DNA from: a virus
Lineage: Duplodnaviria > Caudoviricetes
Direction: 5' to 3' (one strand)
IMG/VR virus record: IMGVR_UViG_3300034357_000290
Location: 1-38,042 of that record
Length of the DNA stretch: 38,042 bases
Below, piece by piece: positions 19,828 to 29,049 of this stretch (position 1 is the stretch's first letter; every line of letters starts with the position of its first letter). Below the pieces are notes generated by a model, which saw nothing but the letters and a program-made list of their open reading frames with translations, searched no databases and was not told the DNA's origin. The position numbers were made by a program, and so were the translations under genes.

Positions 19828-20117
19828 CACCCAACTCTCCAGATGGTTCCGTCGTTGTAGACGGGAACGCCGTTTGCCCCCCCGCCTGCCACTGCCGAGG
19901 CGAAGGTGGTCGAGGTTGCGTCAGTCACGAAGCCGCGCACGCCGGCGGTTGCCGTCGGGAGCTCCGACACAAGGCAGGCGGGAACGAACATCGAGCGCAG
20001 GAGGTCGCTGAAGTTCGTCTCCGTGTTCCTGATGACCTCCTCGATGCGGCGATTGCGCTGCCGCTCGTGAGATGCGTCATAGGATGCAGACGGGAGGACG
20101 AGGGTGCGATTGCTCAC
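19827..20117 (-). CDS. Short tail needle/fibre-like protein
   Basis: Coiled coil followed by ELPTATAG...FVTDA...GGGANGVPVYNDGTIW knob. GTGA overlap with the nozzle gene. Confidence 0.6.
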   Translation of the reverse strand: MSNRTLVLPSASYDASHERQRNRRIEEVIRNTETNFSDLLRSMFVPACLVSELPTATAGVRGFVTDATSTTFASAVAGGGANGVPVYNDGTIWRVG

Positions 20118-21754
20118 CGGGCACCTCCAGACTTCATGCGGAGACGGAGCTTGCCGAGAGCCCAAGTGGTGTCTGCCACCGGCTCGACGCGAACCTGTAT
20201 CGAGCGGGCGCGGAACCTGGTGCTGTTGTAGCCGATCGTGTTGTCTGGCGAGATCGGGCCGATGGTCCTCTGTGGGGCGGCAGGCGCCTGGCGGAGCTTG
20301 AAGAGGAGCTCGTAGTCTGAGGTGTAGCTCGTGCCCGTCGAGGCGTCGTAATTCAAGCCGTCGAACCAGATCCGGTCGACGCGCATGTTCTGCTCGCCGT
20401 TGCCGATCTCAAACTCGCCCGTCTCAGCGAAAATGTCGTTGATGCGGCTGGCCCCGTCAGCCAGCAGGCCGACCTCGTGCTGGTACTCCTGAGATTCGGC
20501 GTAGAGGTATGGCCTCGTGTCCCAGACCGGGTTCATGAAGGCCGTGCGCGACATCGAGCCCTTCGACCAGTACGGCGCCCCATCGAGGGACACGAACACG
20601 TAACTGTCTGGAGTCGAGGAGCCGCGCTTCGGGTAGAATGTCCAGATCTCGCGGTTGAAGCCATTGTAGCCGAGGAAGACATTCGCCGGCACAGTCAGGT
20701 CGCCATTCGCCAGAACCTCGTAGTCGACGTCGGACTGCACCAGCGTGACGTTGCCGTCGTAGCGCCAGTAGCCCTCCTTGGAGAGCCAGAAGCCCATGCC
20801 GGTGACGCCCACGAGGGCGTTCTTGCCCACGCAGCCGACCTCCTCAGAGAGGCGCCTGCGGGCGTAGTAGTAGGGGGCGCCCACGTACTCGATGATGTGC
20901 GCGTCGACGTCAGTGAGCACCAGAATGCCGCCCTGCACGCGAACCGCGGCGATGATCGTGCCCGACGAGTTGAGCTCGAATCCTCCGGCCGTGTTGGTGG
21001 CGCTGGCGGCCCATACCGTCATGTTCTCACGGTCGCACCACTTCACCCGGCGGGGGTTGCCCTTGCCGCCCAGGACCATGATCATGCGCTCGTCGGTGGC
21101 GACCACGAGCGTGTTGTCGATCGGGGCATTGGTGACGGGCGCGGCTATAACTGTCGGCGTTGTGGGGTCCCACGAAAACAGCCGGCCGTCTTGGCTGTGG
21201 ACTGCCACGAGGTAGCGGCCGAAGTTGTCCAGCGACCACTGGCCTACGTTATCGAGGGGCGTCGGAACAGCCGCGCCGTAGTATCCCGAGCCAAAGAGAC
21301 CCGCTCCGTATCCGGACAATGTTCCGGTGGTGACGGCGAGGCTGGCGGGCGTGATGTCGCGGATGGTGGCCGAGGTAGGTGTCGCGCCCTTGAGCTTGGT
21401 CGACGTTCCGACGGCGTACCATGGCGTCTTGTTGTTGTCGCGCCACGAGAGGGCGTCGCGGATGGTTTCGAGCGATGACGGGCCGGGTCCGAGCAGAATT
21501 TCGGCATCCGTCGCTTGGCGCATGATCGACACGTCGGTCGTCATGTCCAGCGAGAGACCCCGCCACTCGTCGCCAAGAAGGCCCAAGTCGTCGCCGAAAT
21601 ACTTGCCCTTGGCCCAGCCGCCGATCGGCTGAAGCTGGCCGTCGACCCAACGCACCTGGTTTGCATCCCACCACCGACGCCCCACGGAGTGAGGCGTGCC
21701 GTTCCGCAGGACGCCCGGCGGCAGGTCGAGGACTGGTGCGTTTTGTCCGCTCAT
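20114..21754 (-). CDS. Tail nozzle / DNA stabilization protein (P22 gp10-like beta-propeller)
   Basis: LPPGV, VRW...PIGGW, WSLDNFG, VKWCDRE, EIWTFYP and ETGEFEIG motifs; carries a ~45-aa insertion near the N-terminus. Confidence 0.85.
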   Translation of the reverse strand: MSGQNAPVLDLPPGVLRNGTPHSVGRRWWDANQVRWVDGQLQPIGGWAKGKYFGDDLGLLGDEWRGLSLDMTTDVSIMRQATDAEILLGPGPSSLETIRDALSWRDNNKTPWYAVGTSTKLKGATPTSATIRDITPASLAVTTGTLSGYGAGLFGSGYYGAAVPTPLDNVGQWSLDNFGRYLVAVHSQDGRLFSWDPTTPTVIAAPVTNAPIDNTLVVATDERMIMVLGGKGNPRRVKWCDRENMTVWAASATNTAGGFELNSSGTIIAAVRVQGGILVLTDVDAHIIEYVGAPYYYARRRLSEEVGCVGKNALVGVTGMGFWLSKEGYWRYDGNVTLVQSDVDYEVLANGDLTVPANVFLGYNGFNREIWTFYPKRGSSTPDSYVFVSLDGAPYWSKGSMSRTAFMNPVWDTRPYLYAESQEYQHEVGLLADGASRINDIFAETGEFEIGNGEQNMRVDRIWFDGLNYDASTGTSYTSDYELLFKLRQAPAAPQRTIGPISPDNTIGYNSTRFRARSIQVRVEPVADTTWALGKLRLRMKSGGAR

Positions 21755-22029
21755 CACTCAAGCATCGCGTTGTGGGTGAGAAGGAGGCTGGTTGCTTCGT
21801 TGGCCCGCACCATCTCATTGCGGAAGCTCTCCACGGCGGCGCCCGTGTGGCGCTGCTGCTGTGAGTTCTCGATGAGGAGCACGGGGAGCCACGTCACGGC
21901 GCAGCCCCACTCGTCGACGTCCTTGCCGGTGTTCGGGTTCGTGCCACGCACTTGGGTGAACCAGTTGCACTGGAGCCCCTTGCACTCACCCTTGATCAGC
22001 GGACAGAAGGTGCCGGGTTTCAACTGCAT
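21754..22029 (-). CDS. Cys-rich protein next to the tail fibre
   Basis: CPLIKGECKGLQCNWF...EWGCAV...AAVESFRNEM. Confidence 0.75.
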   Translation of the reverse strand: MQLKPGTFCPLIKGECKGLQCNWFTQVRGTNPNTGKDVDEWGCAVTWLPVLLIENSQQQRHTGAAVESFRNEMVRANEATSLLLTHNAMLE

Positions 22030-22031
22030 GG

Positions 22032-22931
22032 TCAGTCCTTCGACGCGATGATGAGGTCGACGTACTGGACGGCCATGTCGAGCGTGGTCGAGAAGGAGTG
22101 GTTGTGGGCCGTTCCGGTGAAGGAGTGGGTGTGACCGCCTCCACCACCAGTAGCCGCAGTCGTCTTAACACTCGAGCCTGCGTTATACATAGGATATGAC
22201 CCGCCACCGCCATTAACGTCATTTGTGCCGTATGTGAATGTGTGCGTATGCGACGGAATCTGCGTCACATCGAGCACAGTGCTTCCAACAGTTCCGCCTG
22301 CCGTCGTGTTATCGACGTTGCCGGAGACCGTGCGATTGGCGAAGGCAGTGCTGAAGGCGACGGAGCCGCCAGAGCCCACCGCGCCGCTGACGACGCGCAG
22401 GGCCTTGTCATCCTGGGTGGTGTCCTTCGTCCACCCGGTCGGGGCCGCCGTCTGCTGGAAGAGCATGCGCGTGCCGGAAGGGAACGCGGCAGGAATGGCG
22501 CCGGAAGCGATCTTGCCGGCAGTCACTGACCCATCTGCCAGCTTTGCCGTGGTGACCGACAGATTGGCGAGTTCCGCCGTTCCGACAGATCCGTCCGTGA
22601 TCTCGGCGGCACCCACGGCGCTCAGAGTGGCAAGGCCACCAAGCCCCAGCGTGGCGCGCATGGCCGCGGCGTCCACGCCCGCCATCAGGCTGCGTGCGAA
22701 GGTCGTCAGGGTCGTCAGGGCCGCCGCGGAGGCGCCCGTGTAGTAGGCCAGCCTGTCGGCGGCAGGCGTCAGGCCGGCGACCGAGGACACTGCGGCCGTC
22801 GAGGTCAGCCTGGCGGCCACGGCCGTGTCGATCTTGTCGAAATTGCTGTTCAGGATCGGCGCCCAGCTATCTTCTTCCTCGAACGGGTTCGGCTTGATGA
22901 GGTTCAGGTTCGGTGTGGCTGTCGTGCCCAT
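22032..22931 (-). CDS. Tail fibre with collar domain
   Basis: TPNLNLIKP...WAPILNSNFDKID anchor, FPSGTRMLFQQTAAPTGW collar, HTH/HNH His repeats. Confidence 0.85.
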   Translation of the reverse strand: MGTTATPNLNLIKPNPFEEEDSWAPILNSNFDKIDTAVAARLTSTAAVSSVAGLTPAADRLAYYTGASAAALTTLTTFARSLMAGVDAAAMRATLGLGGLATLSAVGAAEITDGSVGTAELANLSVTTAKLADGSVTAGKIASGAIPAAFPSGTRMLFQQTAAPTGWTKDTTQDDKALRVVSGAVGSGGSVAFSTAFANRTVSGNVDNTTAGGTVGSTVLDVTQIPSHTHTFTYGTNDVNGGGGSYPMYNAGSSVKTTAATGGGGGHTHSFTGTAHNHSFSTTLDMAVQYVDLIIASKD

Positions 22932-23542
22932 CAGGCGATCCTCACGAAACGGCGAAGGGGCGTCGAGCCCATCTTCACCCTCTTGGATTTCTGGTTTGCG
23001 ATCTCGAGGTTCAGCAGGTACTTCGCCTCGAAGCCCTGCGCCCGGTCATCTTCAACAATGAAGTTGGAGCCCTCTGCCAGCGAGGCGTACAGCAGCAAGT
23101 TGGCGTAGCTGTCGCTGAAGACGTTGCTGTTCAGGCCGGCGCCAATGGCGGGCACATTCACGTAGTAGTCAACCGTCACCTGCGCTCCATCCAGCAAGGT
23201 GGGCCAGATGATGATCGAGCCAGCGTCGATGGCAAAGAGGCGGCGGTCCTCGTTGTCGTCGGCAGTCACGTTGACGATCTCGCCCTTGGTCGAGACGTCG
23301 TAGGTGCCGACGCCGGCGACCGACACCTGCCGAATGCGGTTGAAGTTCCCCGGCAGCGTGACAGACCCGGCTGCGGCCGTGAGCGTGACCGTCGCCTCCA
23401 TCTCGAAGACCGACAGTTCGCGGTTCATGCGATCCTGCGCGAGGCTGATGAAGCTGCCGATCTGGGCGTCGGTGAGGTGGTCGGCATCGAGCCAATCCTT
23501 CACCCCGGCGACCCATGCGGAATATGTCGCGTACAGGGCCAT
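22931..23542 (-). CDS. Head-tail adaptor (tail tubular protein A-like)
   Basis: FISLAQDRMNREL, LPGNF, LLLYASLAE; synteny. Confidence 0.75.
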   Translation of the reverse strand: MALYATYSAWVAGVKDWLDADHLTDAQIGSFISLAQDRMNRELSVFEMEATVTLTAAAGSVTLPGNFNRIRQVSVAGVGTYDVSTKGEIVNVTADDNEDRRLFAIDAGSIIIWPTLLDGAQVTVDYYVNVPAIGAGLNSNVFSDSYANLLLYASLAEGSNFIVEDDRAQGFEAKYLLNLEIANQKSKRVKMGSTPLRRFVRIA

Positions 23543-24012
23543 CAGATGAGGCTCCTTATATAGTCGCCGCAGGCTCGAGCCGTCTTGAGCTCGGGTTTGC
23601 CGGGGATGCCGAACGAGATGTCGATCTTGCCGTTCTGCTTGATGCCGAGCGTCGTCTGCACCTCGGCGTGGGAAAGCACGGTGCTGAGAGTGACCGGGAT
23701 TCGGTAGGCCTTGGCGAGCTTCTTCACGAGCTCGATGCAGGCGTCGAACTGGACCTTGGTCAGCGGGTACTTGCCGAGCTTGCCGGGGCCTTCTGCGCCC
23801 ATCATGCCGGCCATTGCCACGCCGATCGCGCCGGCATTGCAGCCCCTCGTGTGGGCCGCGTAGATGCCGTCCGATGTCGCCAGGTTGTCCTCGATTGGGT
23901 GGTCGCCCTTCACGATCGTGCCATCACCGGCGACGACGCGGTGATAGTGTTCGCGGTCAATGTCCGAGACATTGTGCGATCCAGCCGACCAGTGGAGGAT
24001 GATCCGCTTCAT
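23542..24012 (-). CDS. Endolysin, N-acetylmuramoyl-L-alanine amidase (Amidase_2)
   Basis: IILHWSAG, HYH, AAHTRGCN, LSHAEV and KID motifs. Confidence 0.9.
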   Translation of the reverse strand: MKRIILHWSAGSHNVSDIDREHYHRVVAGDGTIVKGDHPIEDNLATSDGIYAAHTRGCNAGAIGVAMAGMMGAEGPGKLGKYPLTKVQFDACIELVKKLAKAYRIPVTLSTVLSHAEVQTTLGIKQNGKIDISFGIPGKPELKTARACGDYIRSLI

Positions 24013-24509
24013 CAGAGCCACACCCTCGCGCGGTCATGCACGACTGCCGGATCAAAGAGACACACCCCGTTCGGCCCCTCGTAGCCACCCGGAACGCCGG
24101 GGCCGGGGATCGGCGTCCAGACTAGGTCGGGGATGAGCGACAGGATGTTCGTGCGCTCAAACACGCCCAGCAGCGTGCCGTCCTCGTCGTACTGCGGCAG
24201 CACTGTCGGGTTGCCCTCTGCGTCAGGCGGTCCCATCATCAGCACGGCCACGATGGGGTCGATGGCGACGAGGTTAACGTGATGCCCCTCGATGACAACG
24301 GCAGGAGTGACCACGTTGCCATCCTCGTCGTAGGTGGCAGGCGTCTTGGTGATCGGACCGATCTCGTCGATGATGACGCCCTGATGCGGGATCAGGTTGC
24401 CGTTCTCGTCGAGCGTTGCCAGCATTGAGCCGTCAGGCAGGGCGGTCGTGGTCATGCCCGTGACGAACAGTTCGCGCGTGCTGCACCATGCGAAGATTTC
24501 AATGCTCAT
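24012..24509 (-). CDS. Acidic fibre-associated protein
   Basis: IDEIGPI...TPATYDEDGNVVTPAV...HHVNL, directly after the head fibre gene. Confidence 0.7.
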   Translation of the reverse strand: MSIEIFAWCSTRELFVTGMTTTALPDGSMLATLDENGNLIPHQGVIIDEIGPITKTPATYDEDGNVVTPAVVIEGHHVNLVAIDPIVAVLMMGPPDAEGNPTVLPQYDEDGTLLGVFERTNILSLIPDLVWTPIPGPGVPGGYEGPNGVCLFDPAVVHDRARVWL

Positions 24510-24510
24510 G

Positions 24511-26649
24511 TTAGCTGGTCCTCGTCTGGAGTTCGGTGTTGGTCAGGCGGCGGGGGATGTAGGTGATCTGACGGATGTGGCCGTTGAGGTATCCGTAGTT
24601 TGTATTTACGAAACCAATATTTAGAACTGTGGCTGGAGACGATGGCATAGTCACAGTTGCGTCTTGTGTGCCCAGAACACCATCCCAAGCCGCATTCGCA
24701 TTATTCGCCGTAGCCGCAATCCCAACTTTCATAATGCCGCCAGTAAGTGCTTTTGGCTCAGTAAATGTCACCCCAGCAACACTATCACGGACCTGTGCGG
24801 TCAATGTGTTGTCTGCGTTTGCTATGAAAGAGATAGTGTTTGTGGTGTTTCCTTCCTGCAATGAAAGCGCATGGCTTATGCTGGACAGTAAAAGACGCTG
24901 GAACGCCAAAACCAACGTGCTTTCCGTGCTGCTATACGGGAACGCTTGCGTGCTGACGCTGGCAACATCAGCATTGCGGGTGGCAGTCGCAGCCCCGGTC
25001 GGGATGTAGCTGGTGGGGAAGGAGCCGTACTCGCTTTGAGCGCCCCATACCAGAATGTCAGCGGTCGCCGGGGTTATGTCGCCCTGAAGTCTAAGTTGGA
25101 AATTTGCTGATGTTGATGTTGAGGCAACAGAAAATCTCTGCCACGAACCCGTTACCGTGATGGTGGATGAACCAGAACCATTCTGAAGCATAACTGTGAA
25201 CGACGAAACACCATCATAGGATTTGAGCCAGACGGTATTTGTTGCTACGCCAGAGCCGGGGTCTGTGTAGTCTTGGAAGAGGCGGCTAATGTCTGCACTT
25301 GTAGTTCCTGCGCCTCTATTAAACTGAACACGATCAGCAGTGGAAGTGCCATCTGGAGCAGTGCCAGCATCCGCTGTAACCGCTGGCACAACACCAGTGC
25401 CTCCAGCAAGTTTCAACCAATCTCCCTGATCAAACTGCGCCGAATACAACAGAAAGTTTGTACGCTGCTCCTCAACGAGAAGCCCACGCTGCGCCAGCGT
25501 CACTGGGTCTGCGTCCAGTCGCGGCCCGTAATACGCAGCGGCAGTCGGTGCGGCTCCGTAGTTCGGGACGTAGGTGTCGAGGGACGCGCTGTCGGAGAGC
25601 TGTGCGCCCCAAGCGTAAAAGTTCCCGGCTGCACCAGATGTATTATACAGCGCAAGACCGATCCCGGTGCCAGTATCAAAGGCCGTGCGGAATGAGCAAC
25701 GATACCACCCATCAGTTCCCACAGGCGTGATGGCTGCATTAGTCGGCGCAAAGGTTCCGGCGGGAGTGCCAGCCGTTCCCGCAGACAGATTGAAGTCAAC
25801 ATAGCCAGATTGCCCGCCAGAACTTTTATAGACAGCCATACGAGCCGTGGTCAGCGTACCTGCCCGAAGGTACATGCTAAATGTTTGCTGCGTTGCTAGG
25901 TTGGCTCCGCTCAACACCTGAGTGGTGTAGGTGTTATTTGCACCACTCAACAGATCGGCAGTCATCAGGCCGTTCGGCGCGACAATAGCGTTTGCCGTGG
26001 CCGTCATATCCTTGTTCCAAGTCCCTACGCTAAAGTCCTCGCTATACCCCAGCAAATTCTTCGCCGTAGTCGGGTTGTACATCGGATACGCGGAGGTGTT
26101 CGCCTTCATGCCGAGGTCGCTGCGGTAGAGGTGTGCGCCCCAGACAAGGATGTCAGCAGTTTCGTCATTACTTGGAATGCTGTCGAACAGTAGTATCTGC
26201 GCGTCTTGAGCAGTGGATGCCGTTGTGGATGTTATGGTGAACAGGGTCCACGCTGCAGTAACAACACAATTTACGCCGTCTGAGTTAATGCGCAGACCAA
26301 CATTTGAGGTTCCGCCAGATGTTGTCTTCATCCACACGCTCCACACACACGTAACAGTCGGTGTGGTTGCATTTTGAACTACTCTAGAGAACGTCCCACC
26401 AGTTTTATTGAGAACAACCCTATCCGCAGTCTGCGTTCCGTTCGGCGCTGCACCATAGTTTGACGTAACAACTGGGCTAGTCGCCCCGCTATTGTCCTTT
26501 ACCCACGACGCCGCATCAAACTGCTCGCTCGCCAGCAGGAGGTTGTGGGGTGCCCATTTGATCTTGCCGTCGCTGTCCGTAAGGGTGGCGTTCGACGTGC
26601 GCGAGAACGTGATGAACTCGCTGGCCTTGCCAGTGGTTGTCGTGGGCAT
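24511..26649 (-). CDS. Head-spike fibre body (RcGTA GhsB-like), three carbohydrate-binding-like repeats plus a C-terminal LamG-like domain
   Basis: ITFSRTSNAT, PRLDADP..GLLVEEQRTN, three NLL..SE.F...W to WGAQ/HL modules, TSYIPT...TRNAD. Confidence 0.8.
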   Translation of the reverse strand: MPTTTTGKASEFITFSRTSNATLTDSDGKIKWAPHNLLLASEQFDAASWVKDNSGATSPVVTSNYGAAPNGTQTADRVVLNKTGGTFSRVVQNATTPTVTCVWSVWMKTTSGGTSNVGLRINSDGVNCVVTAAWTLFTITSTTASTAQDAQILLFDSIPSNDETADILVWGAHLYRSDLGMKANTSAYPMYNPTTAKNLLGYSEDFSVGTWNKDMTATANAIVAPNGLMTADLLSGANNTYTTQVLSGANLATQQTFSMYLRAGTLTTARMAVYKSSGGQSGYVDFNLSAGTAGTPAGTFAPTNAAITPVGTDGWYRCSFRTAFDTGTGIGLALYNTSGAAGNFYAWGAQLSDSASLDTYVPNYGAAPTAAAYYGPRLDADPVTLAQRGLLVEEQRTNFLLYSAQFDQGDWLKLAGGTGVVPAVTADAGTAPDGTSTADRVQFNRGAGTTSADISRLFQDYTDPGSGVATNTVWLKSYDGVSSFTVMLQNGSGSSTITVTGSWQRFSVASTSTSANFQLRLQGDITPATADILVWGAQSEYGSFPTSYIPTGAATATRNADVASVSTQAFPYSSTESTLVLAFQRLLLSSISHALSLQEGNTTNTISFIANADNTLTAQVRDSVAGVTFTEPKALTGGIMKVGIAATANNANAAWDGVLGTQDATVTMPSSPATVLNIGFVNTNYGYLNGHIRQITYIPRRLTNTELQTRTS

Positions 26650-26651
26650 GT

Positions 26652-26996
26652 CTAGTTCCTCACTGCGGAAGTGTTGTCTGTGAAGTCAAGGCCGAGGCAA
26701 TACGGCTCAACGGTGTCGGGACCAGTGCCGAGCAGCCTCTCTGCGCCAAGTGAGACGCGGCTTGCGACGAGGTTCGTTGTGAAATCAAGAGCCAGGCCGT
26801 CCCACTCGTTTCCGAGTTGCAGCAGCAACAACTCACCATCCGATATGGTGCGAACGGCGTAAGTGTTCGTCAGGAAGTCGAGCGTGAAGCCGCTCAACTC
26901 GCTGCCCAGTAGACTTTCCGCAGCACTAGCCCCGCCAGACCCGCCGCCCATAAGCGGAAGGATTGGCGTGGCTATGCCGCGGGCTACTTTCACCAC
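26652..26996 (-). CDS. Putative head-spike anchor/adaptor with three LDF repeats
   Basis: Hydrophobic N-peptide, GGGSGG linker, GFTLDFLTN / GLALDFTTN / LGLDFTDN. Confidence 0.7.
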   Translation of the reverse strand: MVKVARGIATPILPLMGGGSGGASAAESLLGSELSGFTLDFLTNTYAVRTISDGELLLLQLGNEWDGLALDFTTNLVASRVSLGAERLLGTGPDTVEPYCLGLDFTDNTSAVRN

Positions 26997-27220
26997 TGCC
27001 TCACAAGGCTGGAAGCACTTGTCGCAGCCATGACATTAGTGAACCGCTGCACGATGGTCGTGCCGACAGGGACGTTCTGCCAGGTTACAGTCTGACCGGC
27101 TTCCGTCTTGAGCGTGACGCCGCCTGCTACGCCGACGTAGAGCGCCACGCCGAAATTGTCGGTTGTGTCGGACGGCGTAACCGCCGCGGCATTAGATGGA
27201 ATCTGGGAATTGAGCGACAT
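26990..27220 (-). CDS. Head-spike base protein (RcGTA GhsA-like)
   Basis: 76 aa, AAAVTPSDT...ALYVGVAGGV...TVTWQNVPVGT, GGAG RBS. Confidence 0.75.
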   Translation of the reverse strand: MSLNSQIPSNAAAVTPSDTTDNFGVALYVGVAGGVTLKTEAGQTVTWQNVPVGTTIVQRFTNVMAATSASSLVRQW

Positions 27221-28077: not shown

Positions 28078-29049
28078 TTACGTCACGGACGTGATGATGC
28101 CGCAGGCCTTCTGGTTGCCCACTTCGAGGGTGCCCTCGTACTGGATCAGGCGGTTCTCGGTGTGGCCGGTGCGGGCCAGTTCAAGCTGGCGGGTCGGCTG
28201 AAGGTCGACGATCTTCACGAACTCGGGGTCGATGAGGATCATCGAAGCCGCGTTGCTGAAGCGGTTCGGAATGATCTCGATAAGGCCGAACTCGGACTCA
28301 TAAAAATCGACCGCCGAAACGAGACGCTTGGCGTCCGCGTCCTTGTACTTGGTCGCGTAGCCGTTGAACGTCTTCGAGATCGTGCGCTTCACGCCGGGAC
28401 CGACGATGCCGTACTTGACCTCGCCACCCTGCGTCCAGCAGGACTGGATCACGGTGTTGAGCATGTCCTCGGTGATGGTGCGCGACGTGCCCGGAGTGTG
28501 GGCGGCGTTCGGGTAGCCATCAGTCGTGCCCGACAGCGTCGGGGCAGCGCCACCGGAGCCGCGCGAGGCGTTGGTGATGAGCCAAGCCTCGAGGCCAGCG
28601 GCCTTGCGGGTCGTTGCGCCGACAGCGGCACCAGGGACGGCGACAGCGTTGGCAAGGAAGATGGTTTCCTTGTCGCGCTTCAGTTCCTTCAGCTTGTAGC
28701 TGATCTGCTTGGCGAGCTTCTCGACCTTCGCGGCGCCATCGACGCGCTGCGAGGTGTCCGTCACCTTCACAACCTTGTCCATGATCTGCGTGTAGTTTGC
28801 CATGCGAAGAGCCACGACGGGGGCGTCGATGGACGGGGCGTCCTCGCCTTCCGGCACGGCATTGCTGGCGTCTACAGCGCCGAGTTCGACGACGGGCCAC
28901 TCGAACTTGGTGTTCGTCGCGGACGCCTTACCAGCAATGCTGCTGATGAAGGGCGTCTCGGTCGGCGAGATCATGTTTTCCGCGTCGGTGAGGTCCTCGC
29001 GGATGGTCTTGGAGTCGTAGGTTTCAAGTGCGGCTGAACTAACGGCCAT
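28078..29049 (-). CDS. Major capsid protein (SU10/DUF5309-like)
   Basis: REDLTD..ISPTETPF, NYTQI, ELKRDKE, YESEFG and ELARTG motifs. Confidence 0.92.
   Translation of the reverse strand: MAVSSAALETYDSKTIREDLTDAENMISPTETPFISSIAGKASATNTKFEWPVVELGAVDASNAVPEGEDAPSIDAPVVALRMANYTQIMDKVVKVTDTSQRVDGAAKVEKLAKQISYKLKELKRDKETIFLANAVAVPGAAVGATTRKAAGLEAWLITNASRGSGGAAPTLSGTTDGYPNAAHTPGTSRTITEDMLNTVIQSCWTQGGEVKYGIVGPGVKRTISKTFNGYATKYKDADAKRLVSAVDFYESEFGLIEIIPNRFSNAASMILIDPEFVKIVDLQPTRQLELARTGHTENRLIQYEGTLEVGNQKACGIITSVT

Follow-up and report, generated by a model that had tools for sequence, protein, structure and literature searches.

A tail nozzle insertion related to head-spike adaptor modules may dock one truncated lectin-type fiber at several virion sites

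Phage receptor-binding proteins are normally fixed to one site on the virion through a dedicated anchor domain. Chaperone-usher pili and TasA fibers use donor-strand complementation, and SpyTag/SpyCatcher and similar engineered split-domain tags rely on a short strand that recruits the rest of its domain to any carrier. The head spike of RcGTA consists of a base, the Rcc01079 pentamer, and a fiber, Rcc01080 (PDB 6tb9); the accounts of it describe one fiber, held in the base pentamer by an N-terminal Leu-Gly repeat, that binds capsule (PMC7296036, PMC10218006). As described for SU10, the short tail fiber is held by a nozzle loop located on the edge of propeller blade 1 and away from the tail axis. 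Three tryptophans in this dock loop grip the trimeric fiber, and the loop is presented as a fixed part of the nozzle (PMC9509320).

The window analyzed here, meaning the whole stretch of 38,042 bases, is a complete virus record with direct terminal repeats. Its layout is that of a short-tailed phage (terminase, SU10-type portal, capsid and adaptor, tail fiber, nozzle and ejection genes), with SU10-type Pfam matches for the portal, capsid and adaptor. The relevant features are as follows.

20114..21757, minus strand: tail nozzle, 547 aa, phrog_3287, assigned by family profile and gene order
21467..21586, minus strand: putative docking-module insertion in the nozzle, 40 aa, residues 58-97, module core followed by adaptor-type linker
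22931..23542, minus strand: SU10-type tail adaptor (PF24175)
24012..24509, minus strand: 165-aa conserved gene downstream of the fiber (phrog_18574)
24511..26649, minus strand: 712-aa adhesin without a module, the predicted acceptor, with three GTA_spike_fiber (CBM-like) domains and a C-terminal ConA/LamG sandwich missing its first strand
26652..26996, minus strand: head-spike adaptor, 113-114 aa, with a putative N-terminal anchor and three modules
26652..26708, minus strand: adaptor module 3, C-terminal (27.6 bits, module profile)
26709..26822, minus strand: adaptor module 2 with a long linker, the type copied into the nozzle (63.2 bits, module profile)
26823..26921, minus strand: adaptor module 1 (45.3 bits, module profile)
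26990..27220, minus strand: head-spike base protein, 76 aa, Rcc01079 family (NF048002, 46.7 bits, cut-off 28)
28078..29049, minus strand: SU10-type major capsid protein (PF17236)

Our preferred reading, to which we assign a probability of roughly 75%, is that one adhesin is docked at several virion sites by donor-strand complementation, the module completing the fiber's sandwich in trans. The base and fiber of the window belong to the same NCBIfam families as those of RcGTA, NF048002 and NF048003. In RcGTA, as described, the anchor, LDF strand and lectin form one chain, with one fiber per vertex; the Rcc01080 chain continues past its Leu-Gly repeat with the LDF strand in cis. In the window, by contrast, anchor and LDF module are split off into an adaptor of their own, with the module in three copies, and the nozzle holds a fourth. 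The likeness to SU10, as far as its nozzle is described, is a receptor-binding fiber carried on a nozzle loop, which in the window is predicted from position, together with the SU10-type portal, capsid and adaptor. Unlike the three-Trp loop, the window insert has one Trp and appears to be a mobile piece of the fiber's own fold, common to a head protein.

As in donor-strand complementation, one chain is predicted to contribute the strand that another chain's beta-sandwich lacks, and donors at fiber C-termini could chain subunits. The window's predicted acceptor differs in having a ConA/LamG fold rather than a pilin fold, and its donors appear to be grafted onto unrelated virion proteins, where they would position one acceptor. 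A chaperone-usher pilus assignment was considered and not adopted, given the ConA/LamG acceptor fold (Z 19) and a scan of 23 window proteins that matched no family of pilins, chaperones or ushers. As with SpyTag/SpyCatcher, the module is predicted to be a short portable strand that recruits the rest of a split domain; the window's module is natural. The parts of such a system are known (the RcGTA spike families, strand complementation and the SU10 dock loop), and the mobile tag would be the new element. No description of a mobile docking tag was found in the literature searched, which comprised titles and abstract openings, mostly from outside subscription journals.

The nozzle assignment rests on a match of the 547-aa protein to phrog_3287 (E 1e-50), on matches of its family profile to 9nwi_Y (E 7e-20) and to the nozzle gp16 of Vibrio phage VP1 (8zkk, E 3e-9), and on gene order, with the tail adaptor and tail fiber on one side and the ejection genes on the other. 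The preliminary description had reported a gapless match between this nozzle and a 114-aa gene, with 19/37 residues identical and conservation at the protein level. We reproduced that match between nozzle residues 61-97 (21467-21577) and adaptor residues 61-97 (26706-26816). Its Smith-Waterman score was 102, against a mean of 34.7, a standard deviation of 5.5 and a maximum of 71 in 2000 shuffles. When the adaptor was compared with the window by tblastn, the nozzle segment was matched at E 2e-8 and the best unrelated match was at E 2.3. At the DNA level 57/111 positions are identical, and a common codon is used at 5 of the 19 identical residues; since only 7/37 third positions are alike, the likeness is indeed one of protein. 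Two details of the adaptor needed revision. Translation probably begins at the GTG at 26993, giving 113 aa as in the relative P0239, and the adaptor holds three modules and not one.

A module-profile search of the genome returned exactly four copies, of which the adaptor has three and the nozzle one. The nozzle copy reached 66.8 bits (E 7e-20), although the window copy was itself among the rows from which the profile was built. Reversed-sequence decoys scored up to 8.1 bits. The gapless match can also be followed to 48 residues, where the nozzle strand after the insert (window 21428-21466) aligns to the start of the adaptor's third module. This likeness of the nozzle's own strand to module 3 may have guided the insertion.

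We found 117 nozzle homologs and aligned the best 94. The same 40-aa insert was present in 8 of these 94, and 78 had no large insert, among them P0002-P0004, which are 75-86% identical to the window nozzle. Five more had inserts of 215-230 aa at the same site, and three were fragments missing the region. The distance from PIGGW to SWRD is exactly 40 residues longer in the window than in its closest insert-less relatives (P0002, 86% identical), so the segment suspected of being inserted between PIGGW and the SWRDN strand is an insertion. It comprises residues 58-97, with edges uncertain by about 3 residues. Within it, the module core is followed by a linker like the one between adaptor modules 2 and 3, which points to derivation from an adaptor, although not recently from the adaptor of the same phage.

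On a tree of 26 close nozzles built with the insert removed, 9 carry the insert and the supported branches force at least four changes of state. These nine copies have a constant length of 40 aa, 12 invariant positions and a single Trp each, in host nozzles that are 65-96% identical. Between close copies, pN was 0.03-0.07 and pS 0.19-0.29, as in the rest of the nozzle gene, in comparisons that involve few sites and non-independent pairs. From these sequences, the insert appears to have been gained or lost repeatedly under purifying selection.

A second nozzle lineage, also phrog_3287 but about 20% identical to the window's family, carries a module as a 32-aa insert, placed elsewhere in the protein. 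An 85%-identical sister of that nozzle has no insert; the record it comes from, 99% complete, is free of modules and encodes another type of fiber, which is self-anchored. By sequence, this second insertion appears independent and hence convergent.

The strongest competing explanation, which we nonetheless consider unlikely, is that the adaptor modules dock the fiber, whereas recombination brought in the nozzle copy as a passenger, tolerated or decaying, that is unoccupied on the virion. Its patchy occurrence and frequent loss on the tree would fit, as would its absence from complete phages that have both fiber and adaptor. One of these, G012 (100% complete), has a fiber and an adaptor but no module in the nozzle, and the nozzle copy is thus optional. 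In the window's clade, moreover, the copy has Met in place of a conserved Phe and a lower profile score. The window's own copy, which also has a divergent second strand, scores 33 bits with the module profile versus 39-48 for several other copies; these changes suggest that it may bind the fiber weakly. However, Met or Leu at the same position is also found in adaptor modules. The constant length and invariant positions of the nine copies, the low pN relative to pS and the independent insertion in the second lineage also argue against a passenger.

The insert lies just after the N-terminal platform segment, at the site shared by the 215-230-aa domains. Judging from that position and from the large inserts there, it may form an outward-facing nozzle loop at propeller blade 1. 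The alignment suggests that this site tolerates display. The domains of about 220 aa found there in P0034, P0036, P0040 and P0044 are of another kind, and their presence marks the site as a candidate display hotspot. In the P0071 nozzle, a whole domain of the fiber's LamG family occupies the site.

The 712-aa fiber matches NF048003 in three stretches (231 bits, cut-off 36) and the RcGTA head fiber structure 6tb9_F3 (E 1.4e-12). It begins 14 residues before its own FSR motif, and the anchor peptide and LDF strand are found in the separate adaptor. Among its best 120 homologs, 115 have no module and start just past it, and 5 have a long N-terminus, with an adaptor-like module in four of these and an LDL-type strand in the fifth. 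The fiber family thus comes in fused and split forms.

Modeled alone, the window fiber shows three CBM-like domains predicted with confidence, plus a ConA/LamG domain at its C-terminus; its structure matches are of lectin/CBM-like fold. Residues 1-34, 355-395 and 553-571 had pLDDT values of 32-48, although these stretches hold invariant columns. Matches of the model to CBM40 and pentraxins leave the first 20-30 residues of those folds uncovered. In the CBM40 chain 6er3_B, residue 27 is the first to be matched (Z 16.2, rmsd 3.0, 147 residues aligned). A natural fusion, P0321, was modeled with pTM 0.87; its residues 11-100 reached 90-97, as did the parts equivalent to the fiber's weak segments. 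The P0321 model has a helix at 15-20, the LDF strand at 25-30 and a further strand at 35-40, followed at 43-48 by the counterpart of the truncated fiber's first residues. Its match to 6er3_B pairs model residue 23 with chain residue 7 at the outset (Z 19.1, rmsd 2.3, 166 aligned). This contrast with the split fiber, drawn from fold matches and model confidence, spans two different proteins with two different alignments, and P0321 was itself found by the module profile and modeled from an alignment that included 11 adaptor rows. The earlier start suggests that the module supplies strand 1 of the sandwich and its hairpin. The module is accordingly predicted to consist of a short helix and a beta-hairpin, the first strand of the hairpin (LDF) serving as strand 1 of the fiber's ConA/LamG sandwich, and the acceptor fiber is predicted to be a beta-sandwich short of one strand.

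The nozzle insertion copies an N-terminal piece missing from the 712-aa lectin-type fiber, and in the mechanism we propose it is predicted to dock that fiber on the tail by completing its sandwich in trans. The three adaptor modules likely dock the same fiber on the head likewise, with one monomeric fiber per module. By RcGTA symmetry, the 76-aa base would form a pentamer at each capsid vertex and seat the adaptor N-terminus, allowing up to three fibers per vertex; by SU10 symmetry, the nozzle hexamer would offer six more sites. The fiber may bind host surface polysaccharide, by analogy with the RcGTA head fiber. The socket would be constant and the sugar-binding domains variable. If the module completes the sandwich in trans, any virion protein carrying it could display the fiber. 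An earlier proposal that the insertion is a portable docking peptide for the 712-aa adhesin on tail as well as head is supported by the insertion in the alignment, by module copies in other virion proteins and by the association of modules with fibers that lack one. One point against docking is that the nozzle copy is tethered at both ends inside a hexamer.

Less probable still than a passenger is a module that binds something other than the fiber groove (the 165-aa partner, other modules or the host surface) or acts as a transient folding aid. A gene of the 165-aa type follows nearly every fiber locus of the family, and its product is likely a dedicated partner or chaperone of the fiber. However, the small gene follows fused fibers, with the module in cis, as well as split ones. 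Modules at fiber C-termini sit immediately ahead of truncated fibers, tandem fusions begin each unit with a module, and the model places the module strand in the LamG sheet, all of which favor the fiber groove. The tandem fusion is P0238, in which two module-plus-fiber units are joined; it was the only match when longer proteins were searched with an adaptor profile, and that match is weak evidence. P0198 has no module in front and the motif at its C-terminus, and could close on itself or polymerize. Tandem fiber genes in which the first has a terminal LDF-type motif and the second lacks one were seen at L153 3-3297, L155 5784-8443, L167 3-4042, L169 7625-10883 and L174 3-3864, and suggest chained adhesins.

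The P0071 nozzle also raises the idea that a whole lectin domain was formerly fused there and then deleted, leaving the insert behind. This is very improbable: the insert runs into the adaptor inter-module linker and not into the fiber's next strand, P0071 is distant (47% identical) with a divergent motif, and no inserts of intermediate length occur among close kin of the window nozzle in the 94-homolog alignment. Although the module is short, chance likeness or a normal nozzle part can be dismissed, given the margin of the alignment score over every shuffle, the low ceiling of the reversed decoys and the absence of the segment from most homologs.

It had been suggested that the module should travel with fibers that lack it. 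In a tally of 80 fiber loci, many of them near-copies and one (L171) reclassified by eye, 36 have an adjacent adaptor with 1-3 modules and 4 lie behind another fiber ending in the motif. The remainder comprise 13 from one clade with neither, 4 at a contig end and 23 fused or cut. In five records searched from the clade of 13, the 97%- and 76%-complete ones hold one module each, at the end of a 69-aa tail-module gene, and the three that are 35-43% complete gave no match to the module profile. No hidden ORF with the motif was found in the gap upstream of adaptor-less fibers. Modules were also present in 15 of 15 further records with truncated fibers. This was expected, as most of them gave rows to the module profile; the informative part is the extra copies outside adaptors. 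The module profile had no match in five records with fused fibers or in five records chosen by their nozzles; in four of the latter the fiber was searched for as well. However, the profile also failed to detect a motif that can be seen by eye at a C-terminus in G025, which makes these negative controls weak. In the fragment L010, whose close nozzle has no insert, an unrelated fiber occupies the syntenic slot.

Copies in other virion proteins, which the preliminary description had proposed to look for, were found beyond the second nozzle lineage in a tail terminator, a phrog_384 protein, a tail assembly protein (two copies), tail-fiber-like proteins and short tail-module peptides, as well as in minor tail proteins and at fiber C-termini directly before truncated fibers. 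Searching 1.84 billion representatives with a single-module profile gave 84 matches, one a nozzle fragment, at a library size where most lone copies are invisible; 78 of the 84 are unannotated genes of 45-160 aa. Small genes just before the tail fiber bear the module in some phages and not in relatives (L116 4118-4531 versus L164 10105-10404; also L141 3089-3352).

On balance we lean toward a wider reading, held less firmly than docking itself, of a widespread natural plug-and-socket phage display. The lectin fiber would have given up its first beta-hairpin, which became a mobile tag in capsid adaptors, nozzles, tail terminators, distal tail proteins, tail fibers and the C-termini of other fibers; by moving 25-40 codons, a phage could tune the number and position of its adhesins and chain them. 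If so, the anchor is a short piece of the adhesin's own fold, copied repeatedly into unrelated structural proteins of short- and long-tailed phages. This would explain how RcGTA-type head-borne capsule adhesins move to the tail and give a function to dozens of unannotated 45-160-aa genes. It would also provide a natural split-domain tag that is easily tested with a peptide and one recombinant protein.

The adaptor has no family in Pfam, PHROGs or NCBIfam, and tblastn with it against 50,697 GenBank phage records gave no match. As no GenBank phage record covers 80% of the fiber either, no cultured phage with the exact system was found. One adaptor relative, P0292, shares the LGLGL anchor of RcGTA. 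Across adaptors (P0239-P0320), the N-termini vary widely, with Leu-Gly repeats, Pro-Phe repeats and others, and the modules stay alike, which suggests that the socket is mounted on several types of capsid anchor. We dropped the idea of a frameshift fusing adaptor to fiber; at many loci, a stop ends the adaptor 0-10 bases before the conserved fiber start.

The module profile had no match in 33 bacterial genome loci, and a looser profile gave only sub-threshold matches there, in three loci with truncated fibers. In these prophage loci, the LDF-like motif lies inside another gene (L224 11774-12442, L234 14781-16076 and L238 6968-7912), which in L224 encodes a distal tail protein (phrog_1302). On the chromosome of Cupriavidus sp. 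30B13 (L238 9463-11149), a spike base (NF048002, 101 bits), an adaptor and a truncated fiber follow in sequence. The adaptor is about 69 aa long, with an RcGTA-like anchor and two LDF-like motifs. By its sequence, this prophage appears to have the same three-part layout in a cultured host.
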